This document shows, piece after piece, positions 34,494-62,276 of a stretch of 64,000 nt of DNA. Position 1 is the stretch's first letter, and every line of letters begins with the position of its first letter. Made by a program: the position numbers and the translations under genes. The stretch is taken from positions 4,338-68,337 of the forward strand of contig JAXLUJ010000013.1 in assembly GCA_046329575.1 (NCBI GenBank), given 5' to 3'. This DNA comes from Chitinophagales bacterium (lineage in GTDB: Bacteria; Bacteroidota; Bacteroidia; Chitinophagales; LD1). The notes below the pieces were generated by a model. It ran no database searches. It was not told where the DNA came from and worked only from the letters and a program-made list of their open reading frames with translations.

Positions 34494-34551
34494 CTCCATA
34501 ATTCCACTAAATAACATTTATTATATTGCAAGGAGTTTAATAACAACCACT

Positions 34552-37500: not shown

Positions 37501-39852
37501 GTTGTTGGCACATCGGTCACCATTAGTAATCCTGCCACGAGTTGCTTAGCCGATCAGAATTTGTTCACAACAACACCTTCCGGCTTTGCAGTATATAATT
37601 GGAATTTCGGCGATGCCACCACTTCCGGTTTGGCCGCGCCGGTTCATGGTTACAGCAATTCCGGCATATTCAATATCACCGTTACTGCGGTAGATTACAA
37701 TGGTTGCACGGCCACCGGAACTTCACAAATACAAATTTTCCCGCTGCCGGTTGTAGTACTCACTACTTCCGACACGTTCATTTGTAAAGGCGATTCCGCC
37801 CAGCTTACTGCTACTGCCGGTTTCAACAATTACGTATGGTTCCGCGCCGGCGTGCAAATCGCAACAGGCACATCCAACACCTTGTTTGTGTCTCAAACCG
37901 GAATGTATACGGTATTAGTGACAGATGGCAACGGATGTTCTTCTAAATCGAATAGAATGCCGATTGTAGTTCGGCCACTTCCGAAATTTAAGATCAATTT
38001 CCCTCCACCCAATTCTTCCATTGTATGCGTGAACGCCACACAACCGGGCACAACAACAGTAGCGGCGACTTATAACTCTAATTTTATTTACAATTGGTAT
38101 GCTTCTGCGCCTGTGTCCATTGCTTCGCCAAACGCATCATCAACAACGGTAAATATTGCTGCGGCCACTCCTGCAGGAAATTATCCGATTTATCTTACCG
38201 TAACAGATACCATAACCGGATGTAGCAAAAGTGATACGGTATGTTTAACGGTAAGTTTAGCGCCTTCAGTAGTTATTACACCTAATGCTTCTGTTTGTGC
38301 CGGAAATCCTACCGTACTGAATGCCATACCAAACGCACCAATATTTTCTTATAACTGGAATACCGGGGCGTCAACACCTTCCATCACTGTAAGTGCGGCG
38401 GGGAATTATCAGGTTACCATAACTGCTAATCAATCGGGATGTAGCGCCGTTTCCAATTCTGTAATTGTGTATCCAATTCCCGATGTGAGTTTGTTCCCAA
38501 CCGGGTGCGATACACTTTGCGATAAAGATCACCTTTACATCCCCCTTCCGAATCAGTTAAATCCGGTTGCTCCTTCCAGTGTGTACGATACCATTCAGTG
38601 GTTTGTAAACGGAAATCCTTTTTCTCAAGGTCCATTTCTGCCATTAAGTAGTTTAACTCCCGGCAACAACATCATTCATGTAAGCGTTCACAACACTTGG
38701 GGCTGTACAAATACGACTGACGATTACTTTGTTTTTGTAAAACATTGCCCTGACACTTGTATCGTTCAGGCTATTTTTACCAATACACTCCATGGCGACA
38801 CCGCACAGTTTCACAATGCTTCCAGCGGAAACGGCATGCTGAGTTATTTGTGGGTGTTCAGCGATGGCGACACTTCGCATCAGCAAAATCCGGCGCATGT
38901 TTTCGATACTACAGGCGTTCAATCCGTTTGTTTACACGTAACCAACAACAATCCAAACGGAAGTTTTTGTGAAGATTCGTTCTGCATCTGCGTTTGCATT
39001 TGCCACAAAGATTCCGGGTGCAGTGCATTCCTTTCATATCTGCAAAACCAGAACATTACCGTAAATGGCACATTAAATCCAACGTTCACCTTCACACCGC
39101 CGGTTTTACAGCCCACCGACGTAGTTCGATGGGATTATACCTGCGACGGAATCATAGATGCGGTCACCACCGGTAATAGTACTGCAACGCATACCTATGG
39201 CGCATCCGGAAATTATGTGGTATGCGCCAAAATTGAACGAATCGTTGATGGTGATACTTGTTGGGCGCGGCTCACTGCCGCGGTAAAGGCCGATGTGAGT
39301 GTGGCCTGCCACTGCGACAGCACTTTTCTAAGCGCTGTGAATGCCGGATATGCCACCAGCGTTAGTGGAAACATGGTAACCTTCATCCCGCTTGCGCTTA
39401 CGAATTGCGACACGGTGGAATGGAATTTCGGCGACGGATCGCCTTTGGTTTACACCGTAGGGAATACGGCAGTTTCACACACGTATGCCAACCCGCATCA
39501 ACAGTATTACGTTTGTATGTTGGTACGGCGTGCCGGATCGCCTAATTGTACAAGGGAGTTTTGCCGCGCAACCACAGTTTCCGGCATCAACCAAATACCG
39601 GCCGGTGATCTGCGCATCTACCCAAATCCTTCGCAAGATTTCTGGTTCATTGAATGGAATCACAATCAATATAGCGAGACCTATTTTGCGGCAGTGAGCG
39701 ATCCTGCAGGACGGGTTTTGTTGAAACAGCATTTATCATCAGAAAAAACCACACGAATTTCATGTGAAAATTTCAGCTCGGGATGTTATCTCTTGTCCAT
39801 CACCAACGCTTCAGGACAAACCGTGAGCAATTACCGGATTTCGAAATATTGA
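34552..39852 (+). CDS. Giant Cys-rich surface protein with multiple PKD and Ig-like repeats and T9SS type-A CTD
   Basis: ~1766 aa from ATG 34552 (signal peptide ILTFFALFSNQTNAQS). At least five PKD-type W-x-F-G-D-G motifs. C-terminus LRIYPNPSQDF…GCYLLSITNASGQTV is a T9SS sorting domain. Confidence 0.85.
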   Translation: MKHLQSTANRIICGFLILTFFALFSNQTNAQSCCPKFQLTFPENCDRFDSLCESSVISAGMQLSTACKGSTNVYTVYPNLPGYTYQWTITGGTPVSYTGNPVTVTWGNGGNALIKVVISQNSGNCRDSFQTQLCLKDGPVANFTITSSPSCVGQPVTFNNTGTGGVTFVWNFGDGNSYSGFNPPPHVYSTPGTYIVTLLASSNPLTAQPGSQDCHCRDIKSDTLIIGSGTGPKIDTLGCYGSLCSTDTPLRTAYSTPLICGTYNWTVNGGTIISGAGTSSIVVQWNPSFSGTPTVTLSVPASCAGGCASSTTITVPIIYPNLPIQGPASVCVGSTSSYSLPVLPGCYYSWTITGNGNFTPSNNNYNSAVAKVIAGNFPGSFTLNCTYYDSLKHCGGSSSWTVQVLDKFLISAADLKVCEQATGNYFASGPASWQVFQNGILVPSYVIPNGSSASIFWLTPGTYQVVATSLNPLLYCNSSYSATVVVAARPVLTTSQALNSNVCSGDLITYQVNSTHPDYPFNWSISGGTIMANDGDNVTVQWTSGGTISVYQSNPDPSLICPSNTLTFTATPFAAPNITGAATACEDDVVNYNATPAGMPDYQWTIIGGTITGGQGSSAISVLWAGGTGVHSLTVSTCSGSSTKTVFITNKTTYSVTYTAGAGCSYTLTSTATAPTYSWYLNGTPLAPNTQTISITASGYYMVQPNIPCTKASGIAVTLPAIPQVTITTPVSRFCSPGGSVALPAITFNSIISAGGPYTYQWYHTPSPGAIPGANSAVYTQPAGLPSTSMGSYSLVVGYGSGCTVSSNVVVIDTGCGSGGGGTPCTLPSPPYSLTVSKGCNGSYLESFSSPPPAGTSINWNFGDGNTAISSVGAGVTHSFLNPGIYSVCATASNSTFCDLTSCIMDTIPIAPSFSVNIGCTAATLTNTSQMLSGISGYTISWSASSGTISPTGPNTATFTGSGTVTMTISYHGCNYVVSQNVNVVGTSVTISNPATSCLADQNLFTTTPSGFAVYNWNFGDATTSGLAAPVHGYSNSGIFNITVTAVDYNGCTATGTSQIQIFPLPVVVLTTSDTFICKGDSAQLTATAGFNNYVWFRAGVQIATGTSNTLFVSQTGMYTVLVTDGNGCSSKSNRMPIVVRPLPKFKINFPPPNSSIVCVNATQPGTTTVAATYNSNFIYNWYASAPVSIASPNASSTTVNIAAATPAGNYPIYLTVTDTITGCSKSDTVCLTVSLAPSVVITPNASVCAGNPTVLNAIPNAPIFSYNWNTGASTPSITVSAAGNYQVTITANQSGCSAVSNSVIVYPIPDVSLFPTGCDTLCDKDHLYIPLPNQLNPVAPSSVYDTIQWFVNGNPFSQGPFLPLSSLTPGNNIIHVSVHNTWGCTNTTDDYFVFVKHCPDTCIVQAIFTNTLHGDTAQFHNASSGNGMLSYLWVFSDGDTSHQQNPAHVFDTTGVQSVCLHVTNNNPNGSFCEDSFCICVCICHKDSGCSAFLSYLQNQNITVNGTLNPTFTFTPPVLQPTDVVRWDYTCDGIIDAVTTGNSTATHTYGASGNYVVCAKIERIVDGDTCWARLTAAVKADVSVACHCDSTFLSAVNAGYATSVSGNMVTFIPLALTNCDTVEWNFGDGSPLVYTVGNTAVSHTYANPHQQYYVCMLVRRAGSPNCTREFCRATTVSGINQIPAGDLRIYPNPSQDFWFIEWNHNQYSETYFAAVSDPAGRVLLKQHLSSEKTTRISCENFSSGCYLLSITNASGQTVSNYRISKY

Positions 39853-41957: not shown

Positions 41958-42512
41958 TTACCTTATGGTAAGATGAGGAATGTGAAACACTTTTTCATCA
42001 CGAAAAATGGTGAGGTCATAAGTTCCTTCAGGAATATTTTTGACAGCCGAAAAATTTCCGCCTTTTTCAATATAGGACCATTGAACAATTTGCTTTCCGG
42101 ATAAGAATTCTACACACTCATTTTTAAATACACCACCAATAGCCGTGATGGTAACACATGCACTTTCGGGATTATACGCTGCTACATAACCTTGAAATCG
42201 GGAATCAGGCCGAGCTAGTATCTGACTGGAATCTCTAGCCGTCATAGAAGTGTTTAATGGCCATTCAGGATGGATTTGCCAGTTTTCCGGAATTCGAAGT
42301 TCGGTTTGAAAGTGGAGCGCTGCCTGCAAAGGAACATGGAAAACCGGAAGCAGGGCTCGAAAGAAATTGTTGCTGTAAATTGCTGTAGCCGGATCGCCGG
42401 ATTCAATAGTCCATACGAATGCTTTTCCCAATTTGCTGGATACCGTATCCTGACAAAAGACTTGCGTTGATTGAAAAAAAATCAGCAATCCCAAACACTT
42501 TTTTAGTGGCAT
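41958..42512 (-). CDS. Small secreted hypothetical protein, last gene of the five-ORF cluster
   Basis: 184 aa. Signal peptide MPLKKCLGLLIFFQSTQVFCQ. The first five codons are identical in nucleotides to those of the upstream paralog. 2-nt gap to the upstream stop. Confidence 0.6.
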   Translation of the reverse strand: MPLKKCLGLLIFFQSTQVFCQDTVSSKLGKAFVWTIESGDPATAIYSNNFFRALLPVFHVPLQAALHFQTELRIPENWQIHPEWPLNTSMTARDSSQILARPDSRFQGYVAAYNPESACVTITAIGGVFKNECVEFLSGKQIVQWSYIEKGGNFSAVKNIPEGTYDLTIFRDEKVFHIPHLTIR

Positions 42513-42514
42513 AT

Positions 42515-44140
42515 CTATTCCATCATTAACCGCGAGGTAGCCATACGCTTGCCATCGCCTTCCAAAGCTACAGAATAAACACCGCTCTGTAAATTAGGCA
42601 GCGTGATTTGCTGAAAGCCACTGTAGGCGGGCACTTCCAGTTGCAGCACTACTGCCCCCAGACTGTTATAGCACACCAATTGAACCTGGCGGTAACGCTC
42701 CCATTCAATCCAGTTGTAGCTAATCAGCAGTTCGCTGCCACCACTGTTGGGATTAGGCTGCAATTGCAGTGCCGGTGCCCGTCCGTACAGCGGGTACAGC
42801 GAGTTGATGCCGCTGTAGATCGTATCGCAGCCCGATCCGATTTTGCGACCCGTGCGGTAATGAGGGAAATGGGGCGGGGCGTACAATACCATTTTACTGG
42901 TGCGGTACCGCTTGGGGGTGCCCATAGCCGCCGCCCCCTTTTCATTCGGCCGTTCGATGGTCGTAAAACTATGGCCCAGACCATTCATGGCCGTGGCAAA
43001 AAAGATCCGGCCGTCCGGGGCCATCTGAGAGCATTTAAAATTATAGGAGGGAAAGAGATAGTGCAAGGTGTCGAAATTGGGCGGTTGCGGGAACGAAAAG
43101 GTATCTTTCAGCTTGGTCGTATTCAGTACCGTATCGCGGCTGGCCATCACATCGGCCGCCTCCAGATCGTACTGATATACCAATGCCCTTAGATTCAGAT
43201 ATACAAAACGGTTGTTGGAAGAGATTTCCGCACTCTGGCAAAAGGCTTTAAAAGGCAGGTTCAGCGTATCGTATTCCGGAAAGGTGTCGATCACCAGAGG
43301 GTGCGACAACAATCCGCTGCAGCGGTCAAAATCGAACAGCTGCGGATGGTACGTCACAGAGCCCCGCACCGCCTTGGTGCCATCGGCCGAAAAGACCAAT
43401 TTACCATAATCCGCTTCCGTTTCCACTTCGCCTATGCACTGACTGCCCGAAAACGCCAGCGTATCCGGCTTCAGCAGGTAGCGCAGGTAGCAGTTGGTCT
43501 TCCACTCCTTAAAAAATACCCACCAGTCCCGGCCATTGCCATGGCGGCAGGCCGATACAAAACCGATCTCGCATTGGTGCATCGATAGCCGTATATCTTT
43601 CTTTTCGATCTTCAAATGACCGGTGCTGCGGTGGCGCGTGATATACGAATACACCGGATGGAAATCGGGCGTGGTCACATCGCCATACAACTGCGGATAG
43701 AACAGATAATAGCCCGTATCCGTTCCCGGCTGCGGTAACGCCATAAAGCTGTACACCAAGGCCATCCCACCCACGCCATCGTGCGCGATTTCTTTATAGT
43801 CTTCCCAATAATAATCGGTATATCCCAGTGAATCCCCATTCTCAATAATATGGCCCGAACTGTCCATCACCCACATCCCATTGGTTTGAAACAGCAAACG
43901 GCCCGAACTGTCGGAAAAATTGCAATTGCTTTCCCAGTAAGCCATACCCCGGTACTGGGGGCGATACCGGAAACTGTCGGTAAACAACCCTTCTTCATTG
44001 CCGGCACTGGGATGATGCAGCACCGAGTCCTGTAAGGCGGGATCCGCCCCCCAAATCCACGTCCGGTCGTACTGCTGGGCGTAGCTACCGGCTGCAAAAA
44101 AGGAGATTGCAAATAAGGAGAGGAACTTTTTTAGTGGCAT
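42515..44140 (-). CDS. Uncharacterised secreted protein (beta-propeller-like by eye) with T9SS type-A CTD; paralog 2
   Basis: 541 aa with a signal peptide. CTD is LQLQPNPNSGGSELL…YNSLGAVVLQLEV…SGVYSVALEGDGK. Near-identical to 44143..45771. Confidence 0.75.
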   Translation of the reverse strand: MPLKKFLSLFAISFFAAGSYAQQYDRTWIWGADPALQDSVLHHPSAGNEEGLFTDSFRYRPQYRGMAYWESNCNFSDSSGRLLFQTNGMWVMDSSGHIIENGDSLGYTDYYWEDYKEIAHDGVGGMALVYSFMALPQPGTDTGYYLFYPQLYGDVTTPDFHPVYSYITRHRSTGHLKIEKKDIRLSMHQCEIGFVSACRHGNGRDWWVFFKEWKTNCYLRYLLKPDTLAFSGSQCIGEVETEADYGKLVFSADGTKAVRGSVTYHPQLFDFDRCSGLLSHPLVIDTFPEYDTLNLPFKAFCQSAEISSNNRFVYLNLRALVYQYDLEAADVMASRDTVLNTTKLKDTFSFPQPPNFDTLHYLFPSYNFKCSQMAPDGRIFFATAMNGLGHSFTTIERPNEKGAAAMGTPKRYRTSKMVLYAPPHFPHYRTGRKIGSGCDTIYSGINSLYPLYGRAPALQLQPNPNSGGSELLISYNWIEWERYRQVQLVCYNSLGAVVLQLEVPAYSGFQQITLPNLQSGVYSVALEGDGKRMATSRLMME

Positions 44141-44142
44141 AT

Positions 44143-45771
44143 CTATTCCATCATTAACCGCGAGGTAGCAATTCGTTTGCCATCGCCTTCCAAAGCTAAA
44201 GAATAAACACCGCTCTGTAAATTAGGCAGCGTGATTTGCTGAAAGCCACTGTAGGCGGGCACTTCCAGTTGAAGCACTACTGCACCCAGACTGTTATAGC
44301 ACACCAATTGAACCTGGCGGTAACGCTCCCATTCGATCCAGTTGTAGCTAATCAGCAGTTCGCTGCCACCACTGTTGGGATTGGGCTGCAATTGCAGTGC
44401 CGGTGCCCGTCCGTACAGCGGATACAGCGAGTTGATGCCGCTGTAGATCGTATCGCAGCCCGATCCGATCTTGCGACCCGTGCGGTAATGAGGGAAATGG
44501 GGCGGGGCGTACAATACCAGTTTACTGGTGCGGTACCGCTTGGGGGTGCCCATAGCCGCCGTACCCTTTTCATTCGGCCGTTCGATGGTCGTAAAACTAT
44601 GGCCCAGACCATTCATGGCCGTGGCAAAAAAGATCCGGCCATCTGGGGCCATCTGAGAACATTTGAAATTATAAGACGGTAGATAGATATAATGCAAGGT
44701 GTCGAAATTAGGCGGTTGCGGGAACGAAAGGGTATCTTTCAGTTTAGTCGTATTCAGTACCGTATCGCGGCTGGCCATCACATCGGCCGCCTCCAGATCG
44801 TACTGATACACCAAACCCATTAGATTCAGATATACAAAACGGTTGTTGGAAGAAATCTCTGCACTCTGGCAAAAGGCTTTAAAAGGCAGGTTCAGCGTAT
44901 CGTATTCCGGAAAGGTGTCAATCACCATCGGGTGCGACAACAATCCGCTGCAGCGGTCAAAATCGAATAGCTGTGGGTGGTACGTCTCAGAGCCCCGCAC
45001 CGCCTTGGTGCCATCAGCCGAAAAAACCAATTTGCCATAATCCGCTTCCGTTTCCACTTCGCCTATGCACTGGCTGCCCGAAAACTGAAGTGTATCGGTT
45101 GTGAGAAGATACCGCAAATAGCAGTTGGTTTTCCACTCCTTAAAAAATACCCACCAGTCCCGCCCATTGCCATGGCGGCAGGCCGTTAGAAAACCGATCT
45201 CGCATTGGTGTATCGAAAGCCGTATATCTTTCTTTTCGATCTTCAAATGACCGGTGCTGCGGTGGCGCGTGATATACGAATACACCGGATGGAAATCGGG
45301 CGTGGTCACATCACCATACAACTGCGGATAGAACAGATAATAGCCCGTATCCGTTCCCGGCTGCGGTAACGCCATAAAGCTGTACACTAACTCCATTCCT
45401 ATTATGCCGGCACGTGCCCCCTCCTCAAGATCTTCCCAATAATAATCGGTATAGCCTAGCGAATCCCCATTCTCGATAATATGACCCGAACTGTCCATCA
45501 CCCACATCCCATTGGTCTGAAACAGTAAATGGCCGGAACTGTCGGAAAAACTGCAATTGCTTTCCTCAAAAGCCATACCCCGGTGCTTCGGACCATACCG
45601 GAAGCTGTCCGTAAACAACCCTTCTTCATTGCCGGCGCCGGGATAATGCAATACCGAGTCCTGCAACTCCGGATGTGCGCCCCAGATCCACGTCCGGTCG
45701 TACTGCTGAGACTGACCAGCTCTGGCAAAAAACAAAAAGGCGAAAATTGGAAGGAGCTTCTTTAATGGCAT
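44143..45771 (-). CDS. Uncharacterised secreted protein with T9SS type-A CTD; paralog 1
   Basis: 542 aa. Same architecture as paralog 2. Its start overlaps the stop of the 2246-aa ORF by 10 nt (ATATGCCATTAAAG). Confidence 0.75.
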   Translation of the reverse strand: MPLKKLLPIFAFLFFARAGQSQQYDRTWIWGAHPELQDSVLHYPGAGNEEGLFTDSFRYGPKHRGMAFEESNCSFSDSSGHLLFQTNGMWVMDSSGHIIENGDSLGYTDYYWEDLEEGARAGIIGMELVYSFMALPQPGTDTGYYLFYPQLYGDVTTPDFHPVYSYITRHRSTGHLKIEKKDIRLSIHQCEIGFLTACRHGNGRDWWVFFKEWKTNCYLRYLLTTDTLQFSGSQCIGEVETEADYGKLVFSADGTKAVRGSETYHPQLFDFDRCSGLLSHPMVIDTFPEYDTLNLPFKAFCQSAEISSNNRFVYLNLMGLVYQYDLEAADVMASRDTVLNTTKLKDTLSFPQPPNFDTLHYIYLPSYNFKCSQMAPDGRIFFATAMNGLGHSFTTIERPNEKGTAAMGTPKRYRTSKLVLYAPPHFPHYRTGRKIGSGCDTIYSGINSLYPLYGRAPALQLQPNPNSGGSELLISYNWIEWERYRQVQLVCYNSLGAVVLQLEVPAYSGFQQITLPNLQSGVYSLALEGDGKRIATSRLMME

Positions 45772-48700
45772 ATACTGATTTTTTGGGAAAAGAGATGTTT
45801 ACCTTGCTGCAGCACCCGGATCTGATACGCTCCCGAAGCTATATTTTTTGTGTCAATAACCACTCTGTTGCCCGAAAATTCCCATTGATCCAAAACCACT
45901 TCACCTAAATAATTGAGCATCTGTATATGCTTACCGTTAAAAAAATCGTTTTTAACGGTAACAAAAACCGAATTGCCGGCAGGAATGGGATACACATGGT
46001 ATTCCGGAGTAGTGCAGATGGAAATGGAGGTATCCGGTTCCTTTTTCAGGGCGATGCCTACCTGATCGCAAATATCGTAATCATCATACGCTTCGGGCGA
46101 AGACCAATTCAGCAGTGCCCGAGCCTCAAAAACTGCCATACCTCCTTCAATATAGCAGGAATGCGCTATATCGTACAATTGCTGATACCCCTCTTCATCT
46201 AAATAGGAAGAATCAGTAACTACTGAATGCAGATAGGCATCCGTTACCTGTTTTTTATTGCGTTCATAATATTCCAAATCAGAAAGATTCCAGTTGCTAT
46301 CGATTAACTGCAGTCTTCTGTCCTCAAAAATAGCTTGTTCAGCCGAATGTATAGCTTCTTGCAATACCCTTTCACTATCAATGAGGGCATACAGCAGTTC
46401 TCGCTGTACGATATAGGCCGAATCTGGAAGTGCAATAAAAGACGACTGTGTATCGCTTGATGTCCATAGCTGCTCCAGACTGTCCGATACATTTAAAATG
46501 GCGGTATCATCCGGTTCGGCAGTAACAGTTAATATGCGTGCGGCAGCATCCAGGGTATCTAACTGCCGTTCATACTGGCTTTGGCGCAGATAGCTGGTCT
46601 GCAACTGATCGCTATGTACCGAAGTATAATCGCGCAGATGTTTTTTTGCATCAGCCACCTGTACGAACCGCTCTATTTCGGTACCGTGGTTTTGTTGGTA
46701 AAAATCGTATTCGGGGCTGCCGAAAATAAGGCTGTCGCGGGCATCGCCCAGGGCGCCCAGCACCTGTTCTTTGGCATCCCATTTGTTAACCTCCGTAAAA
46801 TAATCGGGATTGTATTTCCCTTCCATCACCTGCCTTTCGAATTCCGACAGTATCGGATTCGTACCGGCCGTCAAAGCCGGTAGCGCACTGCCACCGGAAC
46901 ATTTTGGCAAATCGGAATAGAACGGATCTCCACGAAACCAGCCATTTAATTTGATATCGACATTGAGATTCCCGGTATTAATCGGATTAATGAAGGAAGG
47001 CGTTACCTTATCTAAGGTCGGGCTCTGATCGGAACTGCCAGAGGCAGGAGTTACAAAACGGCTTGCCGCACCATTTCCCGTTTGGTCCAATAGTTGGCTT
47101 TGGTTCCAGGCAGCGGCGCCGCTGGTCATCGGATTGGTGCCATAACTACCCATCCAGCGGTTACCCTTTTGGGATTGATCGCCAATTAAACCCGATGCCG
47201 TAATCTGCACTCCCAAATAATTGCCTATGTTACCTCTTCCAATTTCATTGGTTTTGAAATCGGTATTCTGGTTTCGTCCTTCGAATCGAAAGCCGGTCCG
47301 CAAATTGTAGGCAGAATTGCACTCTAAACGTAACCCGCCTAAGGTATTTGCGGCTATGCAAAAACCACGCGGGTATTGTTGATTAGAGGCCATAATCGGC
47401 CCAATATTCTGGGCCGTATTGGAAAGTATCTGAATATTGGTGCTGTTGTGAACATTAAAGCAGTTGTTCGGCCGGATCTGATTAGAAATTGCCGTTACCG
47501 TATTTTCCTGTACCGAAACATTTTTATCGGTACCGCCATTTACGCCGTTAAATGTTACGCCCTCTACACCCCGCTTAATAGTTACAATATTATGTAGAAT
47601 ACTCAATGTGGGATAGCTGTTCGCCACATCATCGGTCACAACGATTCCAAACCCATAATTTGATGAAGACGGCCCGTGAAAAACGCCCCACTCCCAACGC
47701 TCCACATCCACTGTATTGTTACTTATAGAGTGCTTGAGGGGGCTCCAGCCTGCCTGCCTGCAATAATTCATAGCAATGCCAATTGATTGCGGCTCCAGTT
47801 TAAAAAACGGTTGCGCCTGAAACGGAGACGGCGTAAATCCAAGCATACGAATATAATTGTTCTCAATAGTGATTGTTGAATTCACACATCTGTTGATCAA
47901 TATGCCGGTTTGGCAGTAATTTAAATGATTACCGGAAACATTTATAGTATAAGCATCTTCTACTTTCACAGCCTTCCGGCACAATTTAAACAATGAATTC
48001 GTGACCTGAAGGTTATTACTAATTGCAGGGAATTTGCCTTTCGCATAAATTCCATTACCACATCGCATTCCGGTTCCTCCCGCGCCGGCAGGCTCTTCAA
48101 ACGCTAAATACGTTGCCGGGTGTGCCGGGTCGGGCAACTCGTAAAATTTAGCGTTGTCGATAGTAAGGGTGGAATTTCTGAGTACGATGCCATTCGCGAT
48201 ATGTTTAAAGTTGCCGGTAACAATATCGGGTACTACCGTTTGGTTCAAAACCATTCCGGCAAAAGCCCAGTTGTTATTTGGTAGTGTCATATCTAAAACG
48301 GTAGGCTCACCTACTGCATTCCACATACCCGGAAAAGGTTTTTTTAAATTTTGGTTTCCTTCAAACAAGGTGAGATTCCCCAGTTGAATGCTGCACTTTC
48401 TTACTGCGCCTAAAACCGTTGGCGGAAAAGGAGCGGTATAGATCCCTATAAAATTGTTTCGGAATGCCGCATAATCGCAATAGAGCTGGCTCTTTTGGTT
48501 AAGTTGAATGGCATATTGAGCATCCTGAATTTCTTTAAATCGAACCAGAGAGAGTTTAGCATCAGCCGACACTTTAAAGCCCTGCCACAGGCAATCGCCC
48601 AGGGAAGCTATCGAGCAGGTTGCCAAAATCAAATTTTGCGATGGCAACACCGTGATTGACCCGCCCGGAACTACAAGAAATTTCACGAAACTAAAAACAT

Positions 48701-51700
48701 ACTGATTGCTGGTAACATTACCCGCAATTACAACTACCGGCGGGTTGGCCGAGCTGCCCAGATACATATTCGGATATCCTTTCCCGGCCATATACGAAGC
48801 AATTTCTGCACCATCGGGAATTACCATAGCTATCGGAAACGGCGATGTATAATTATAACTGATCGCCGCAGTCGACTGATTGAATTGCGTAACCGTAACC
48901 GTATAGGTTCCGCTCATGATGGGCGTAATAGTTGAAGTAGCGGCACCCGTATTCCACTCATAACTTTGTGCAGCCGGGGCTTCCAGCATCGGCAGGCCGC
49001 AATCATCAAAACATCTGGTCACAACAACTTGTTTTGAAGCCACAGCCTGGCAGCCATTTGCTTTAGTTACTGTAACAGAATAGTTATATGACCCGGAAAC
49101 GATCGGGGCTGAAAAAGTAATAGCCGGCGAAGAGGCGGGAGAATTACTCCATTGATAGGTTACGCCATTATTAGCAGTTAAAGTAATGTCATTACCGGTA
49201 CACACGGTGTTAGCTGATGCAGTGATTACCGGGTTACATTGCGGAATAACTATTTCATCAAAATGCGATTGAATAACTTCCGTTTGTTGTTTACAGTAGA
49301 GGTTGTATTGCCACTCCAAATCCAAACGCGGGATGTCGAAAAGGCAATTTTGGGGAGTAAACTCAAGCTGTAATTGAAGTTGGTCTTCTGAACCTGGATT
49401 ACCATCAGTAACGCCGTCGGCACCAAAAGCTGAATTGACTGCAAAGTTGGTCAGGTTCAACGAATTTAACGTTCCAAGATCAAGATTATTAATGGTATTG
49501 GGAAGCGTTAGGGTTGCATTTGCAACCACCACACCTCTTCGTAAAAGACTCCATCGGTGAAGTGTTAAACCCGGTTGAGGCGTCCAGAAAACTTTCATAT
49601 TTCCGGCACCTCCTTTACCGGGATTATGAAATGCGATAATATATTTTAAATCAGCATTGCCGTTGCAAATTGGGTTTACCGGAGGGGTCAGTTCCAAACT
49701 GGCGGTAGCCACTTGTGGTGGGGTAATGGACAGCGTGTAAGGCAAAGACGCCGAGTTCATGCAACTATTTCCAAAGGGAGAGAAATTTGTAGCAACTTCA
49801 TTTGGATAATTTCCATCACAACTCCATCCATATTGTAATGGAATTTGAAAAAGATGCTCCGGCAAGCAATCAGCAAATCGGAATTTTAACTGACAATTAA
49901 CTGAATTCTGGTTTAAAGGACCAAAGGTATATACGACATAACAATTACCATTTACGTCGGTTCTGTAAACCGGTTGTATTGGAACTGAGTTTAACATTAC
50001 GCCATCCAGATCGATTTGACCTGCCAATCCTGAAATAGGGAATGGCCCTAAAGGGGTTCCCGTGCATGCGGCTGCTGTGGGCACGGCGATATGAATAAAA
50101 AAAGAAGTGTTATCAGTAGCCCCGCCTCCAATCGGCTGGGTCACATCCATATTTAGATTATATGAAAATGTATTTCCTACAATAAAGTTAGGTTGTGTTT
50201 GAATAGCTTGCGGTGTAATAGTTAGCGTAGGGGGCGAAAGTATTGGATTGTTACTGATTCCAGCGCCGCCAATATCCGTGACTACTGCTACATTGTTACA
50301 GTAATTGTCGAAATCGGCAAGACTCATCGAAAAATCAGTTTGCTGAATAACTCCATTGGAAGGCGTTGGTCCCGTACATTCAGGAATAATCTCTGTAATT
50401 AGACCTTGCTCAAAGTATTCATCGCCCAATACTAAAGCTGGCAAATTATTTAATGGGGTTGGACTGCCGATTGTTCTAAATTCATTTTCATTAAATATAC
50501 TCGGCAAAGATGTCCAATATGCAGCAACAAAGGGGTTCAATGGAACTGTGTTTCCTGTAATAGTTGCAGGCATACTTTCGCGCATCAATTGATATCCTGC
50601 AGCATTGTTAGTGTTCAAATAAACGGAACCCGAGCCACTGCCATATCCATATCCCGAATAAGGTTGAACAGGAATAGGAAGACTACTCCAAATCGGACTA
50701 ATGGCGGGTTGATTTGCAAAATTATCTGTTACTGATGTTATATACTGTTGATCTACCTGAAAATTATTAAATGTTTGCGCAACAGTATAAAGCCATTTTA
50801 ATTTTGCCCGGAACCCGTTGGGAATATTTAGGTTAAATTTATAGGGAGTTGTTAAATTATTTGCACCTTGTATTCGGGGGCCATTAAATAAATTAAGCGC
50901 TACGTCTCCCGGAATCGGACGAATTTCATACGGAAATACGTTAACCAGTCCATTGAAGCCATCAACATAAAATTTGTGCCTCATTTTATTGTACTTATGA
51001 CAAGAATTCGGATTGTCCCACGTTTCTTCTGTTTCCTTCCTAATCGGAAAAAAGGTAACACCATCTACGCGCGGTTCGCACATAAAGTATCTGGCATCGG
51101 CTGTAGAATTTGCTATTGGTGAACTAACGCAAGGTTGACCAGGGTGAAGCTCATTCGTTTCACCGGCATCTTTCATTTTACTGTGAGGATCCCCCTCAAA
51201 TACCCCGTTTAATTTAACATCACTTTCAGTGGCGCCGTAAACACCAAAAAGGTAACTGATCGCAAGAATCGTCTTAGGTTGACTAACATTTTTACATACG
51301 GTATAGTGCGATTCAATTTTAAAGACTTGACCCGGATGAAACTCAGTTAAATTAAGATCGCTATTAGTAAAATGATAAAGAAATATTGATTTATCACCAA
51401 TAACGTTGCCGTTTTGAATAGCCGATTTATATACACTACCAGCGGGAATGTTATTTGCAAAATCACTTTGACTATTAAAAACGGTAAGTTGAATACTACC
51501 ATTCGATGGCAAGTCTTTCGATTCGCGCAATAATCCTTGATCGTCTAACCAGGATAACTGTAAATAAATATCTTCAATCTTACGCCCCCCACAAGCGGCC
51601 CATTCCGAATAAGAATAACCAACTGTTGAAGTGCCATCAAAAAAGTTTGCGTAAGAAACAACCTTGAGTTGATCGCCTAGCATAACGCTATGCGTTTGAA

Positions 51701-52502
51701 TATTCGGAGTATTCGCATTTACCATAGTAAAAGGATTTGTAGGCGTTCCGTCATCAACTCTTCCGTCATTGTCTTCATCCTTAAATCCGAAAGTGGTTCG
51801 ATTAGCTTGAAGCGAGGATGTTATGATTCCAGGGGTTACACAACCAGGACAAAAGACAACGAAACGAAAGGCTTGTTCGTTCAATGGTATAAAACACTCT
51901 GTAACGCAAGTATTCGGCGAATGGAGTGGGTTTGGTGAAAAATATGTATGCATGTAGGCATAAGGATTAGACTTGGTTGGGTCAGAAAGAGGACAACATC
52001 CGCGAATCCAAAACTTAATTTTTGAACCGAGAAAAAAGTTAACAAAGTCGCTCATACCCGGTGCTGTAATCCCTGATTGTATTAACTCATTTTTCAAGTC
52101 GTCTAAGTCAAAAATGGCATAGGCATCGGCATTTGGATCAAATGTCGGCGCCATTGCATCTTGAAAGTTACTTGGATTCCAAACCGTATTACCTTTTTCT
52201 ATCCTAGGCGATTGTCCGCAAATTAAGTTTGCTTCTAAATTATATACTATTGCAAATTTTCCCCGAGGGAAAGCGGTCTCAGTCTCGCAGAATAATTGCC
52301 CGTCGCCATTCAAGTTCTGAATTTGTGTAGCCGGAAAAGAAGCATTAATAATTTCGTTATCATATTCGTCGTTACTACATGATCCAACATTGCGATCTAC
52401 GATTCCAAAGTTATATTGGTGCGGATACTGTTTTAATTCAAGATCAGGGGCGGTTATCCCATCTGCCATTTGAGTTGAGATTCCTTTTGATGGCAAATTC
52501 AC
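45762..52502 (-). CDS. Giant T9SS-CTD protein lacking its own signal peptide (beta-sandwich/Ig-like repeats, DxDxDG motif, right-handed beta-helix region, helical region, type-A CTD); in frame with the upstream 500-aa ORF across one TAG
   Basis: 2246 aa. The N-terminus MNLPSKGISTQMADGITAPD is not a leader. Contains DEDNDGRVDDG. Ig-like segment VCTGNDITLTANNGVTYQWS. PbH1-like repeats (…NSTLTIDNAKF…VSGNHLNYCQTGILINRCVNSTITIENNYI…). CTD is YHVYPIPAGNSVFV…GAYQIRVLQQGKHL. Confidence 0.8.
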   Translation of the reverse strand: MNLPSKGISTQMADGITAPDLELKQYPHQYNFGIVDRNVGSCSNDEYDNEIINASFPATQIQNLNGDGQLFCETETAFPRGKFAIVYNLEANLICGQSPRIEKGNTVWNPSNFQDAMAPTFDPNADAYAIFDLDDLKNELIQSGITAPGMSDFVNFFLGSKIKFWIRGCCPLSDPTKSNPYAYMHTYFSPNPLHSPNTCVTECFIPLNEQAFRFVVFCPGCVTPGIITSSLQANRTTFGFKDEDNDGRVDDGTPTNPFTMVNANTPNIQTHSVMLGDQLKVVSYANFFDGTSTVGYSYSEWAACGGRKIEDIYLQLSWLDDQGLLRESKDLPSNGSIQLTVFNSQSDFANNIPAGSVYKSAIQNGNVIGDKSIFLYHFTNSDLNLTEFHPGQVFKIESHYTVCKNVSQPKTILAISYLFGVYGATESDVKLNGVFEGDPHSKMKDAGETNELHPGQPCVSSPIANSTADARYFMCEPRVDGVTFFPIRKETEETWDNPNSCHKYNKMRHKFYVDGFNGLVNVFPYEIRPIPGDVALNLFNGPRIQGANNLTTPYKFNLNIPNGFRAKLKWLYTVAQTFNNFQVDQQYITSVTDNFANQPAISPIWSSLPIPVQPYSGYGYGSGSGSVYLNTNNAAGYQLMRESMPATITGNTVPLNPFVAAYWTSLPSIFNENEFRTIGSPTPLNNLPALVLGDEYFEQGLITEIIPECTGPTPSNGVIQQTDFSMSLADFDNYCNNVAVVTDIGGAGISNNPILSPPTLTITPQAIQTQPNFIVGNTFSYNLNMDVTQPIGGGATDNTSFFIHIAVPTAAACTGTPLGPFPISGLAGQIDLDGVMLNSVPIQPVYRTDVNGNCYVVYTFGPLNQNSVNCQLKFRFADCLPEHLFQIPLQYGWSCDGNYPNEVATNFSPFGNSCMNSASLPYTLSITPPQVATASLELTPPVNPICNGNADLKYIIAFHNPGKGGAGNMKVFWTPQPGLTLHRWSLLRRGVVVANATLTLPNTINNLDLGTLNSLNLTNFAVNSAFGADGVTDGNPGSEDQLQLQLEFTPQNCLFDIPRLDLEWQYNLYCKQQTEVIQSHFDEIVIPQCNPVITASANTVCTGNDITLTANNGVTYQWSNSPASSPAITFSAPIVSGSYNYSVTVTKANGCQAVASKQVVVTRCFDDCGLPMLEAPAAQSYEWNTGAATSTITPIMSGTYTVTVTQFNQSTAAISYNYTSPFPIAMVIPDGAEIASYMAGKGYPNMYLGSSANPPVVVIAGNVTSNQYVFSFVKFLVVPGGSITVLPSQNLILATCSIASLGDCLWQGFKVSADAKLSLVRFKEIQDAQYAIQLNQKSQLYCDYAAFRNNFIGIYTAPFPPTVLGAVRKCSIQLGNLTLFEGNQNLKKPFPGMWNAVGEPTVLDMTLPNNNWAFAGMVLNQTVVPDIVTGNFKHIANGIVLRNSTLTIDNAKFYELPDPAHPATYLAFEEPAGAGGTGMRCGNGIYAKGKFPAISNNLQVTNSLFKLCRKAVKVEDAYTINVSGNHLNYCQTGILINRCVNSTITIENNYIRMLGFTPSPFQAQPFFKLEPQSIGIAMNYCRQAGWSPLKHSISNNTVDVERWEWGVFHGPSSSNYGFGIVVTDDVANSYPTLSILHNIVTIKRGVEGVTFNGVNGGTDKNVSVQENTVTAISNQIRPNNCFNVHNSTNIQILSNTAQNIGPIMASNQQYPRGFCIAANTLGGLRLECNSAYNLRTGFRFEGRNQNTDFKTNEIGRGNIGNYLGVQITASGLIGDQSQKGNRWMGSYGTNPMTSGAAAWNQSQLLDQTGNGAASRFVTPASGSSDQSPTLDKVTPSFINPINTGNLNVDIKLNGWFRGDPFYSDLPKCSGGSALPALTAGTNPILSEFERQVMEGKYNPDYFTEVNKWDAKEQVLGALGDARDSLIFGSPEYDFYQQNHGTEIERFVQVADAKKHLRDYTSVHSDQLQTSYLRQSQYERQLDTLDAAARILTVTAEPDDTAILNVSDSLEQLWTSSDTQSSFIALPDSAYIVQRELLYALIDSERVLQEAIHSAEQAIFEDRRLQLIDSNWNLSDLEYYERNKKQVTDAYLHSVVTDSSYLDEEGYQQLYDIAHSCYIEGGMAVFEARALLNWSSPEAYDDYDICDQVGIALKKEPDTSISICTTPEYHVYPIPAGNSVFVTVKNDFFNGKHIQMLNYLGEVVLDQWEFSGNRVVIDTKNIASGAYQIRVLQQGKHLFSQKISICH

Positions 52503-52514
52503 ATTTGCCGGAAA

Positions 52515-54017
52515 CTACGGAAGCGATGTTCCTGAAGTTTCCGTAAAACTAGTTTTACTGGAACTAAACTCTTGAAAAGTGTAACAAGCCAAATCGTACC
52601 TTCCCTTTACTTCAAAATGATTAAAAACATAATTGTAAAGTGATTGCGGCCATTTATTGTTAGTGGTAACAAGATTTGCTGGACATACTCTGGTTGTTTT
52701 AAACTGCAAAATGAAAAGATCATCTGCTGCTAAATCCCCTAAGCCTTTATAGTAGGCCTTTAATCGTCCATTAGCATCATTCACTGAATACGGACTATTT
52801 TTATGTCCAATAGATTGGATATCGAAGGCAGCCGGAAACAAATATGAACTTATTGGATTTAAATCGCCATCTACTTTTTGCACTTCAATATCAGTCACAT
52901 CTAAATAATCTAATTGGGGAAACAGATCATAAATTTGGATATATGCATTCTTGACTGCACATGTATTTTGAATAAGAAATTTCCAGTTTTGTGAGGCACC
53001 GATACAAGAATTATCCCATGCCTCATTGTCCGCAGGTAGTATCCTGCTTACTGTCATTGCTTTAGGATCAACAGGATTTGTGAAGGTAAAAGAACAATTT
53101 GGTTCAAAAATACATGATGAATTCGACTCACATGTCCATGCCGCTGTAACACTTACCTGACATGGTGCATTTAAGCACGTGGGCGTGATTGAGGTTAAAC
53201 CCTGGTGTTTTAAAGAAAATACAAAATTAATTTCTTCGTGAGGCGGAATTGGAGTATTAGCAAACGACCTGGAAAAAGTGTAACGGCCTGTGATAACTGG
53301 ATCCGGAACCAAAGTGACATTAATAGGTTGATTGCTAATTGATGAAGGCAAAATAATTTTTGCAGAGGACATTACCTGAAAATTATCCGGACAGTGTATA
53401 TCCAGCGTAACTGTAACATTGCCCTTGAACTCGCTATCTCCTGTATTCTGGAATATGGATTTAAGATCACTTAGTTGTCCCGGTACATAGTTCTGATTTG
53501 CAGTGGAGTTACAAGTAAGTATTGGATAATGCATAGCAGAATTTATCGTCAATCCACTTGATAATACAGTAATGTTTTGTTGAAAAGCCGGCGCAGTAAC
53601 CGAATTGTTAGGAATCAATCCACATTTTGGATGTACCTTAAAAGGTAAAATTAATACTTCTCCTGCTGCAAATGACTGGCTCGAAGTGTATGTGATTTCA
53701 TAACCAGTTCCGGAACTATTTGGTGCTAAGCTGAAATCAGGCGGCATCACTGTCAGAGTATAAAGTCCGGTAGAAATGCTCGAATTATTTTTCTTTAAAG
53801 AATAACCAATTACCAAGTTTGTATTAGCACTAAAGGCGGAATTGAACTTAATTTCAATGGAAACATCATTATCTGTACATGCTTTTAAGTCAATAGTTTG
53901 GGTAAGATTTGTTAGTGTTACCGATTGTGAAAACATTATCGCCGGAATACCAACGAAAAAAATGATCCATAATAACTTTCTGATTCCTACGAGAGGACAC
54001 ACGGATTTGCTGTTCAT
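52515..54017 (-). CDS. Signal-peptide-bearing beta-sandwich-repeat protein without CTD; probable N-terminal part of the giant ORF downstream
   Basis: 500 aa. Leader LLWIIFFVGIPAIMFSQS. CARDB/DUF11-like segment (NTGDSEFKGNVTVTLDI). Ends …TSGTSLP-TAG, 12 nt before the GTG of the next ORF and in the same frame. Confidence 0.75.
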   Translation of the reverse strand: MNSKSVCPLVGIRKLLWIIFFVGIPAIMFSQSVTLTNLTQTIDLKACTDNDVSIEIKFNSAFSANTNLVIGYSLKKNNSSISTGLYTLTVMPPDFSLAPNSSGTGYEITYTSSQSFAAGEVLILPFKVHPKCGLIPNNSVTAPAFQQNITVLSSGLTINSAMHYPILTCNSTANQNYVPGQLSDLKSIFQNTGDSEFKGNVTVTLDIHCPDNFQVMSSAKIILPSSISNQPINVTLVPDPVITGRYTFSRSFANTPIPPHEEINFVFSLKHQGLTSITPTCLNAPCQVSVTAAWTCESNSSCIFEPNCSFTFTNPVDPKAMTVSRILPADNEAWDNSCIGASQNWKFLIQNTCAVKNAYIQIYDLFPQLDYLDVTDIEVQKVDGDLNPISSYLFPAAFDIQSIGHKNSPYSVNDANGRLKAYYKGLGDLAADDLFILQFKTTRVCPANLVTTNNKWPQSLYNYVFNHFEVKGRYDLACYTFQEFSSSKTSFTETSGTSLP

Positions 54018-54167
54018 AAAGTGAGTTTTAGATGTTATTAACCACTAAAACAGAAAAACAGTAATCCCCTAAAAAGCTAAAACATTATTCCTGAAAATTG
54101 AAGAGGGTTGCGGTTATAGTGTTTTTGTGATTGCGTTTTGGTTTCTTCGAATTTAGTACTTTTTTAT

Positions 54168-55248: not shown

Positions 55249-58200
55249 ATGTATATGTTGAAAGAAGCGATTCAAAAGAAAATTCTGGTGCTCGACGGCG
55301 CTATGGGAACCATGATCCAGCGTCACCAACTTACCGAAAATGATTTCCGCGGCAGCCGTTTCGCCGGTCATGGTCATGACCTGAAAGGCAATAACGACCT
55401 GCTTTCCATCACAAGACCTGATATTATTAAAGATATTCATCGCCAATATTTTGAAGCCGGTGCCGACATTGTGGAAACCAATACTTTTTCTTCAACCTGG
55501 ATTGCTCAGGCCGATTATAAATTAGAATCGCTGGCTTATGAACTAAATTACGAATCGGCTAAGATTGCAAAGGAAGTGGCCGCTGAATTCAACCAAAAAA
55601 CTCCCGGCCAACCGCGCTTTGTAGCCGGCGCTTTGGGTCCCACAAACCGAACGGCTTCCATTTCGCCTGATGTCAACAATCCGGGTTTCCGCGCTATAAC
55701 CTTCGATCAACTTGTAGATGCCTATGCCGAACAAACACGCGGCCTGATTGACGGCGGTTGCGATCTGCTTTTGGTAGAAACCGTTTTTGATACGCTGAAT
55801 TGCAAGGCGGCACTTTTTGCTATTAAGAAGGTGCAATTAGAGAAAGGCACGGATGTTCCGGTTTCTGTTTCAGGAACCATTACCGATGCCAGCGGAAGAA
55901 CACTAAGCGGTCAAACAACTGAAGCCTTCTGGATTTCTACCAAACATGCCGGATTGTTTTCCATAGGCCTGAACTGCGCTCTGGGCGCGAAAGACATGCG
56001 CCCGTATCTGGAAACACTGGCCGGCATATCCGATTGTTATGTGAGTGTATATCCAAACGCGGGTTTGCCCAACGCCTTTGGCGGTTACGATGAAACGCCA
56101 CAAATGATGGCTGCTGCCGTGGAAGAATTTTTAAAAAGTGGCTGGGTGAATATTCTGGGCGGCTGTTGCGGCACCACACCCGACCACATCCGCGAATTTG
56201 CCGCGGTGGCCAAAAAATATCAGCCGCGACAAAAACCAAAACGCATCCCATTCCTTCAATTGAGCGGATTGGAACCGGTAACGCTTACGCCTGAAAGTAA
56301 TTTTATGAACGTGGGCGAACGCACCAACGTAACCGGCTCCGCAAAATTTCTCAAACTCATTAAAGAATCGAAGTTTGAAGAAGCGCTGAGCGTAGCCCGC
56401 GAACAAGTGGAAGGCGGCGCACAAGTAATTGACATAAACATGGACGAAGGCATGCTGGACGGTGTGGCTTCAATGAAAACATTTTTGAATCTGGTAGCAG
56501 CCGAACCCGACATCGCACGCGTTCCGGTGATGATTGATTCTTCCAAATTCGAAATTATTGAAGAAGGCTTGAAATGCTTACAGGGCCGTGGTATTGTAAA
56601 TTCTATTTCCCTGAAAAACGGGGAAGAAGAATTCATCAGGCAAGCTTCGTTAATCAATCAGTATGGCGCAGCAGTAATTGTAATGGCTTTTGACGAAAAA
56701 GGTCAGGCCGATTCGTACGAAAGAAGAATTGAAATCTGCGAACGATCGTATAAAATCCTCACTCAAAAAGTAGGCTTTCCTGCTGAGGACATCATTTTCG
56801 ACCCGAATATTTTCCCGGTGGCCACCGGCATGGAAGAGCATCGCCAGAATGCGGTAGATTTTTTCCGCGCTACCAAATGGATTCGTGAAAATTTACCGCA
56901 TGCGCACATCAGCGGCGGCGTGAGCAATGTGAGCTTTTCGTTCCGCGGAAACAATCCCGTACGCGAAGCCATGCACGCTGCATTCCTGTATCACGCCATT
57001 CAAAATGGCATGGATATGGGCATCGTTAATCCCTCGATGCTGGAAGTGTATGATGATATACCGAAAGAATTATTGGAACGCGTGGAAGATGTGTTGCTGG
57101 ATCGCCGCGATGATGCTACCGAGCGTTTGTTAGCATTTGCCGAAACGGTGAAGAAGAAAGACAAAGCTGATGACACTCAGGAATTAGCCTGGCGCCAAAC
57201 TTCAGTGGAAGAACGATTGGCGCATGCGCTGGTAAAAGGCATTGTGGACTTCATTGATGCCGATACCGAAGAAGCCCGGGTGAAATACGGTAAACCACTT
57301 CAGGTAATTGAAGGGCCACTGATGGCAGGTATGAACATTGTGGGCGATTTGTTCGGTCAGGGAAAAATGTTTCTGCCGCAAGTAGTGAAAAGTGCACGGG
57401 TAATGAAGAAATCGGTAGCGTATCTGCAACCTTTTCTGGAAGAAGAAAAAACTTCGGCTACCTCGAATTCAGCAGGAAGAATTTTATTGGCCACGGTAAA
57501 AGGCGATGTTCACGACATTGGAAAGAACATCGTGGCTGTGGTGCTGGCCTGCAATAATTTTGAAATCGTGGATATGGGCGTGATGGTCCCGGCCGATAAA
57601 ATTCTGGAACGTGCTAAAGAAGTGAACGCCGATATTATTGGCCTGAGCGGACTCATTACGCCATCACTGGATGAAATGGTGCATGTGGCCAAAGAAATGG
57701 AACGCCTGAACATGAAGCAGCCTTTATTGATTGGCGGGGCCACCACTTCGAAAATTCATACCGCAGTGAAAATCGCACCCGTGCTTTCTTCGCCGGTTGT
57801 GCATGTACTGGATGCGTCTAAAGGCGTTACCGTGGCTTCACAATTGCTAAGCAAAACCGATGCGGAAAATTTTAAGAAAGAAGTTAAAGCAGAATACGAA
57901 GAAATCAACAGGCAGTTTCTGAGCAAACAGAATAAAGTGAACTATGTTTCGCTGGAAACGGCGCGCAACAATCGCTTTCAATTGGCGGCGCCGGCTGCAA
58001 CGCCCGCTGCTAAAGGCATTCAGGTGTTTGCCGATTATCCGATAGCAGAAATTGCCGCCTTCATCGATTGGTCGCCTTTCTTTTCTACCTGGGAAATGAA
58101 CGGCACCTTCCCTAAGATTTTGGAAAGTGAAAAATATGGTTCGGAAGCCAAAAAATTGTACGCTGATGCGCAGGCCATGTTGCAAAAAATAATCACCGAA

Positions 58201-58872
58201 AAGTGGTTAACTGCAAAAGCGGTGATTGGTATTCACGAAGCCAAAAAGAAAAATGAAACCGTTACGCTGAAGGGCGTCGATTTCCATTTTCTGCGGCAGC
58301 AGGCTGAGAAACCTAAAGGCCAGGCTAACTACTCACTTGCCGATTTTATTGCGGAAGAAAACGATCATTTAGGAACGTTTGCGGTTACAGCAGGAATTGG
58401 CATTGAAAAGAAATTGGAAGAATTTGAAAAACAGCACGACGATTATTCTTCCATCATGCTGAAAGCACTTGCCGACCGGCTGGCAGAAGCGTTCGCCGAA
58501 CTAATGCACAAACGTATTCGTACCGAAATATGGGGATATGCCAAAGAAGAAAATCTCGACAATGAATCACTGATTCGTGAGGCCTATCAGGGCATTCGTC
58601 CCGCACCCGGTTATGCCGCCTGTCCTGACCATACTGAAAAACCATCTATCTGGAAATTGCTGGACGTGGAGAAAAACACAGGAATTAAACTTACGGATAG
58701 TTATGCCATGTATCCAACAGCTTCCGTTTGCGGTTGGTATTTTGCGAATGCAGAAGCTCGTTATTTTGGTGTGGGAAAAATCGAAAAGGATCAGGTTGCG
58801 GAATTAGCCAAAGCGAAAAAACTTCCGGTGGAAGTAATGGAGCGCTGGCTGGGCCCTAACCTTGGCTACTGA
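55249..58872 (+). CDS. metH: Cobalamin-dependent methionine synthase
   Basis: 1207 aa. Hcy- and pterin-binding barrels, B12-binding DxHxxG (GDVHDIGKN) and a C-terminal AdoMet activation domain. Confidence 0.93.
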
Positions 58873-59196
58873 TCAGGGTTTCACCACAATGGTTTGGGTA
58901 ACGTTACTGCTCTTGCCGCCGTTCAGCACCAGCAACAGCACATCGTAATTACCGGCTGAATCGTAAACCGTTTCCGGCCGTCCTTCGTTGCTAATTTCGC
59001 CATTGCCAAAGTCCCATTTATACACCTTGGCGCTGTTACTGCAAGAACCGTCAAATTGCACGGCCTTCCCTACCCTAATGCTATCGGCAGGAGTGGTAAC
59101 TTTAAAACATGCAGCAGGTTGGGTGCCGCATGCGTTCAATCCAAAAAGAAAGGCCGCTATGGCCAATACCACAAAGAGTGATTTCATTTTATTCAA
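58873..59196 (-). CDS. Small PKD-domain lipoprotein
   Basis: 107 aa. Leader LNACGT. PKD motif [10 protein letters not shown]. Confidence 0.7.
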
Positions 59197-60475: not shown

Positions 60476-60532
60476 CGGGCTAAACTAATAATTACTGGCA
60501 GTTAGCCTCGTTTCAATAGCTACATTTACAGC

Positions 60533-62206: not shown

Positions 62207-62276
62207 TTTAGGCCAATCCTGCAACCTATGGCTTACAACCCATTGCAATTAATGAGGCAGGAAATAATTTTGCAAG

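Follow-up and report, generated by a model that had tools for sequence, protein, structure and literature searches.

The stretch of DNA analysed here, called the window throughout, comprises 64,000 nucleotides of a Chitinophagales bacterium (GenBank assembly GCA_046329575.1, contig JAXLUJ010000013.1, positions 4,338 to 68,337 of the forward strand). On its minus strand lies a very large gene interrupted by a single in-frame TAG, so that two adjacent open reading frames (ORFs), here called the 5' ORF and the 3' ORF, stand in its place. An earlier sequence-only reading had described the pair as one type IX secretion system (T9SS) cargo gene cut by this codon, with a signal peptide on the 5' ORF and a C-terminal sorting domain (CTD) on the 3' ORF. 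The parts of the gene are listed below, where P0006 and L002 are homologues and A1 is an alignment, and where fused residues are those of both ORFs joined across the TAG.

45762..54017, minus strand: reconstructed ancestral gene; 2751 sense codons with an internal TAG and a terminal TAA, collinear with P0006 and L002
52515..54017, minus strand: 5' fragment; 500 codons and the TAG, leader present, sorting domain absent
53925..54017, minus strand: Sec-type signal-peptide-like leader, about residues 1-31, MNSKSVCPLVGIRKLLWIIFFVGIPAIMFSQ; heuristic call, cleavage site inferred
52515..52517, minus strand: in-frame TAG, codon 501; same bases in Logan contig SRR26348422_8985145
52503..52514, minus strand: four sense codons, TTT CCG GCA AAT (F-P-A-N), from the TAG to the first possible restart codon
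45762..52502, minus strand: 3' fragment; 2246 codons from a GTG, leaderless, CTD at its end
45771..45995, minus strand: type-A T9SS C-terminal sorting domain; PF18962, 31.1 bits
50688..53186, minus strand: conserved Cys-rich module, fused residues 278-1110, spanning the TAG (alignment A1)
49017..49232, minus strand: Ig-like domain Ig_7 (CHU_C-associated); PF19081, 23.3 bits, below the cut-off of 27.3

The 5' ORF runs on the minus strand from an ATG at 54017 through 500 sense codons to the TAG at 52517..52515. The codons TTT CCG GCA AAT follow, then a GTG at 52502, from which the 3' ORF continues for 2246 codons to a TAA at 45764..45762. Translation of 54017..45762 in one frame gives 2752 codons with one internal stop, and the earlier statement that the two ORFs share a frame and are separated only by the TAG and four sense codons is thereby confirmed. 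Nowhere else in the 64-kb window is a pair of long stop-to-stop ORFs on a coding strand in one frame and split by a TAG. A consensus scan for promoters and terminators near the junction returned no sites above those of shuffled sequence, the sigma-70 consensus being unsuited to Bacteroidota.

The two targeting signals expected of a T9SS cargo are divided between the ORFs. The 5' ORF begins with MNSKSVCPLVGIRKLLWIIFFVGIPAIMFSQS, in which K/R residues are followed by the hydrophobic core IIFFVGIPAIMF (residues 18-29, Kyte-Doolittle 2.69 over 12 residues); the signal-peptide call is heuristic and relies on basic residues together with a Kyte-Doolittle hydrophobic core. A similar N-terminal core (Kyte-Doolittle 2.1-3.5) is found in all full-length homologues, and in all of them S-Q-S follows the core as it does here. 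The 3' ORF has no comparable leader from either its GTG or Met12, with a maximum Kyte-Doolittle value of 0.38 in the first 60 residues. At its other end, residues 2170-2244 match PF18962 Por_Secre_tail at 31.1 bits (gathering cut-off 27) over positions 1-75 of the 75-position model, and the match stops 2 residues short of the stop codon. The allocation of signal peptide and CTD in the earlier reading is therefore upheld. The only NCBIfam match of the 3' ORF was to a model for a T9SS-dependent M36 peptidase, in that model's C-terminal tail; TIGR04183 gave none, and the 5' ORF matched nothing in either Pfam or NCBIfam.

According to PMC12618676, T9SS substrates require a Sec signal peptide and a CTD on one chain. 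As the gene is now written, leader and CTD sit on separate ORFs, and they share a chain only in the reconstructed ancestral gene. None of the core T9SS components (PorK/L/M/N, SprA/Sov, PorU/V) was recognised among the ORFs scanned in the window; three other CTD-bearing ORFs are present in it, which indirectly supports the existence of T9SS machinery in the host.

The Cys-rich module that spans the TAG is about 830 residues long and carries the motifs FKTxRCCP, GCCP, HCPGCVTPG and NVFPYEYR. Alignment A1 contains 50 invariant columns within it, on both sides of the junction. The module has no sequence match in Pfam, NCBIfam or the PDB, and a PDB sequence search with the 3' ORF returned nothing. 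It occurs in giant proteins from metagenome-assembled genomes (MAGs) of Chitinophagales, Sphingobacteriales and Crocinitomicaceae. An AlphaFold model built from a 9-sequence alignment was poor (mean predicted local distance difference test score 50.6), and the stretch that holds the junction scored below 50. Going by its sequence, the reconstructed protein of about 2750 residues would comprise a Sec signal peptide, a Cys-rich family region that takes up about the first 1100 residues, Ig-like and repeat regions, and a type-A CTD. As a module restricted to Bacteroidota MAGs for which there is no Pfam model, the Cys-rich region could deserve a description of its own.

Homologues across the junction

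An exhaustive HMMER search of 1.84 billion representative proteins, with fused residues 1-1200 as the query and X at position 501, returned 43 matches. At least 12 of these (P0002-P0011, P0014 and P0015; 1131-4033 aa, 24-30% identity) span position 501 in one stretch. P0007, for example, matches fused residues 9-1090 with its own residues 32-1121, P0009 matches fused residues 146-1070, and residues 9-500 of the 5' ORF align with the N-terminal parts of far larger homologues. The matches were also re-scored against the whole 2751-residue fusion. P0006 (2714 aa) gave one BLASTP alignment of fused residues 294-2747 with its residues 269-2710 at 30% identity, which amounts to near full-length collinearity. 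Por_Secre_tail was detected above the cut-off in P0005 and P0007 and below it in P0006 (24.1 bits, cut-off 27). Homologues are thus single polypeptides that cross the junction, as expected if one cargo gene has been cut by one TAG, and they combine a signal-peptide-like N-terminus with a CTD in the architecture that the earlier reading had deduced. Among the same representatives there was no standalone homologue of the 5' half or of the 3' half, no match began or ended at the junction, and no relative was found in which the region forms two genes, the second with a leader of its own.

A profile scan of GTDB species representatives gave a similar picture. It found 36 loci, all in Bacteroidota MAGs except for one contig, which has probably been mis-binned. 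The best match, L002 (Chitinophagales STL-BAC28), is a single 2818-aa ORF with a leader; one alignment pairs its residues 4-1692 with fused residues 21-1713. The final ~220 residues of L002 match the C-terminus of the fusion, CTD included, although Pfam did not detect Por_Secre_tail there. Across seven GTDB loci (L002-L008) the ORFs are unbroken over the point equivalent to the TAG. As a side observation, the exceptional contig, L033 (CAZHSC010000104.1), is binned as 'uncultured Bifidobacterium sp.' and matches the otherwise Bacteroidota-restricted HCPGCVTPG module.

In a MAFFT alignment the TAG falls in a column filled by T, L or A in the homologues, with conserved blocks upstream (FKTxRCCP...FNxW...C) and downstream (IS...DLxLxQ). 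The F and A of the four codons after the TAG align with the conserved Y/F and A, respectively, of a family motif Y-x-A, and the F-P-A-N codons can therefore be regarded as ancestral coding sequence rather than intergenic spacer. Judged from these alignments, the two ORFs are pieces of one ancestral gene.

The alignment also bears on a TTCCG repeat that flanks the TAG, in which the earlier reading had seen a hint of slippage or insertion. The repeat is present; like a pair of CCG codons at the same place it was spotted post hoc, and a 5-mer recurs that closely at 0.8% of codon positions in the split gene. A product of insertion or slippage is not apparent, because the window sequence is shorter than its relatives at the junction. 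Slippage or duplication at TTCCG was thus rejected, the alignment having no insertion at the TAG, and a point substitution suffices.

The stop codon and its explanations

The TAG also stands in a second assembly. Logan contig SRR26348422_8985145 is 100% identical to window positions 54165..52423 (1743 nt), TAG included, and a second Logan contig of the same run is 100% identical to positions 62609..57679 (4931 nt), which indicates that the window consensus is generally accurate. Exact-protein look-ups recorded only the 500-aa ORF and tyrS, both solely from run SRR26348422. Since no other run contained exact proteins of the organism, the Logan contig probably derives from the window's own reads, assembled a second time. 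The look-ups gave no record for three neighbouring genes, and the 2246-aa product, from either start, was absent from a collection of 5.8 billion protein clusters and from a gene-position index. The Logan contig with the 500-aa ORF breaks 92 nt downstream of the TAG, inside the 3' ORF; no repeated 31-mers that would account for the break were found in the window at the Logan contig ends. With an identical second assembly at hand, the assembly error that the earlier reading had listed among possible causes is unlikely.

Of the 31 long ORFs in the window, 11 end in TAG, among them the well-supported dinB-like and LptD-like genes; the code in use is therefore the standard one, and code reassignment was excluded. 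A tRNA scan, limited to the 64-kb window, found no tRNA genes. The other genes inspected in the window are intact, which argues that it is neither error-ridden nor in general decay.

The TAG is probably a real and recent nonsense mutation in a giant, fast-evolving gene for a T9SS surface protein, making the allele a null for surface display and a young pseudogene. A single base substitution would have turned sense codon 501, which lies in a poorly conserved stretch with conserved blocks on either side, into TAG. A change from TTG would match the Leu of three homologues; CAG, TGG, TCG, AAG, GAG and TAY are equally one change away. The rest of the 8.2-kb gene is undamaged, which suggests that the mutation is recent; such complete lack of further damage would point either to a very recent event or to an allele that coexists with others in the population. 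Ribosomes would stop at codon 501 and yield a 500-residue fragment that could be exported by Sec to the periplasm, where, for want of a CTD, it would not be passed to the T9SS. Any restart at the GTG at 52502 or the ATG at 52469 would give a leaderless product unable to reach the periplasm or the T9SS. A null allele for surface display would follow from leader and CTD being on separate products.

Several points weigh against a recent nonsense mutation. The Logan contig excludes an assembler artefact but neither a systematic read error nor a mixed population, and an amber suppressor tRNA encoded elsewhere in the genome would lie outside a tRNA scan confined to the window. The open 2246-codon stretch downstream would fit equally well with continued selection on a product that is still made. 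Moreover, no true orthologue was found: nothing in the 1.84 billion representatives, the GTDB representatives or the JGI metagenomes exceeded about 35% identity or shared neighbouring genes, so that neither the ancestral codon nor the age of the mutation is observed, both being inferred. No close relative came out of 8-mer peptide scans of GTDB genomes and JGI metagenomes, profile scans found only relatives of 34% identity or less, and word-indexed searches with a junction-spanning 542-aa query and with the 2246-aa ORF yielded nothing beyond the window's own 500-aa protein and a single partial match of no relevance. P0002-P0016 and L002-L008 do not share the gene neighbourhood of the window and are consequently regarded as paralogous family members rather than orthologues.

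Other explanations differ in what they make of the intact downstream sequence. The TAG could be polymorphic, with an intact gene in some cells and the assembly representing the majority or one strain; such an on/off allele, whose loss and retention could be under fluctuating selection such as phage or predator recognition, is unlikely. It would agree with a gene that is otherwise perfectly intact and with a family that is highly divergent and lineage-specific, as expected under diversifying selection on surface proteins. The unexplained break in the Logan contig 92 nt past the TAG is compatible with strain variation or low coverage and is at most a faint hint, since the break is not at the TAG and low coverage could suffice. 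No variant sequence was seen, and one contig only is on record for the region. Nonsense mutation and population variant had both been offered by the sequence-only reading; both stand as candidate causes, and they are not told apart by these data. A sequencing or consensus error, with a sense codon in the true genome and a plain 2751-codon gene, seems improbable. A one-base difference would be enough to produce it, and the remainder of the gene is intact; however, the same 1743 nt, TAG included, came from a second assembler, the other Logan contig agrees perfectly over its 4931 nt, and no second broken gene turned up in the window. It is rare for a substitution error to survive consensus.

That the full-length protein is still made at some level by translational recoding is very doubtful. 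Ribosomes could get past the TAG by amber suppression with a tRNA-CUA from the host or a phage, by leaky termination, or by hopping 9 nt from the CCG of codon 500 to the CCG that lies two codons beyond the stop; the hop would give TSLPANVNLPSK. All 2246 downstream codons are open, and the identical CCG codons on either side of TAG-TTT could formally serve for take-off and landing; E. coli reporter work has documented short hops in which a stop codon between two matched codons is skipped. Against this, at 7% of positions in the split gene a codon comes up again within three codons by chance, TAG is a frequent ordinary stop in a window that has no tRNA, and the homologues have a sense codon and no conserved stop at the site. 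The TAG is followed by T, and in E. coli such a context goes with efficient termination. Downstream structured RNA was not found either, with a folding energy of -24.5 kcal/mol for the 131 nt that surround and follow the TAG (z-score -0.34 against shuffles), and the regulated readthrough or suppression entertained earlier is thus left unsupported. There is only a slim chance that the TAG is tolerated or used, with a fraction of ribosomes passing it by the CCG hop or by a host or phage (TAG-recoded) suppressor tRNA. If so, surface display would be low-level or condition-dependent, for example infection-dependent, and selection on the full-length product would explain the intact 2246 downstream codons. 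Finally, it is hardly credible that the ORFs are two genuine genes, one encoding a 500-aa protein that is periplasmic or secreted, the other a 2246-aa protein whose coupled translation starts at the GTG at 52502. The GTG lies 12 nt past the stop and would permit termination-reinitiation, but such an arrangement is contradicted by the architecture of every homologue, none of which begins or ends at the junction, and by the alignment of the spacer codons with family residues. Furthermore, the second product would have a T9SS CTD but no route across the inner membrane.

If the TAG is a recent nonsense mutation, the phenomenon is a familiar one and the locus a new example of it, an annotation-relevant pseudogene. 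Annotators should merge the two ORFs and flag the result as a single disrupted gene. Left unmerged, they enter databases as a "T9SS cargo" that lacks a leader and as an orphan "secreted protein" of 500 aa, and the 500-aa piece is already there. The locus would also be a small example of a giant, fast-evolving Bacteroidota surface protein switched off by a single mutation.

Neighbouring genes and known systems

Downstream of the split gene lies a further feature on the same strand.

42515..45771, minus strand: tandem pair of paralogues (542 and 541 aa; 91% identity), each with an MPLKK... leader and a Por_Secre_tail match below threshold

The first paralogue overlaps the stop of the split gene by 10 nt, which suggests that both paralogues are probably in the same operon as the split gene. 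Being probably co-transcribed with it, they could suffer some polarity from the premature stop. Near-identical repeats of the paralogues occupy most of 42.5-45.5 kb. A 184-aa ORF at 41958..42512 (minus strand) also starts with MPLKK and otherwise has no detectable similarity to the 542- and 541-aa paralogues; it may be the remnant of a third copy.

Elsewhere in the window, a 104-aa ORF at 58873..59187 (minus strand), between tyrS and metH, combines a lipoprotein-like leader (...FGLNAC) with a PKD domain. It figures among the genes called in Logan contig L038 and was missing from the ORF listing used for the window, which was restricted to ORFs of at least 150 aa. The region 32613..39852 (plus strand) contains a LigD-type ligase/primase-polymerase gene (626 aa) followed directly by the gene for a 1791-aa PKD-repeat protein with a Por_Secre_tail CTD. 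The 1791-aa protein has one Ig-like segment in common with the split gene, at ~30% identity over 150 aa.

Among known systems, the reconstructed protein resembles T9SS cargo with type-A CTDs, such as SprB and RemA of Flavobacterium and the CHU_ proteins of Cytophaga, in joining a leader to a Por_Secre_tail. In contrast to such cargo, leader and CTD are here on separate polypeptides owing to the TAG. It is also like the large T9SS adhesins in its very large size, its Ig-like (Ig_7, CHU_C-associated) segments and its Bacteroidota setting beside other CTD proteins, and its nearest GTDB relative has a sub-threshold SprB-repeat match. Unlike these, it has no significant similarity to any named adhesin, and its N-terminal Cys-rich module is without a database match. 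The uncharacterised giant MAG proteins (P0002-P0016 and L002-L008) have in common with it the ~830-residue HCPGCVTPG module and the leader, and in several cases the CTD; they differ in that identity is 24-34%, the neighbourhood is not shared and all of them are uninterrupted. As an event, the split resembles that of young nonsense pseudogenes, in which adjacent same-frame ORFs are collinear with single-gene homologues and show one disabling change and no further decay. It is the same kind of event as these, in an unusually large gene and with a break that happens to part the two targeting signals cleanly.

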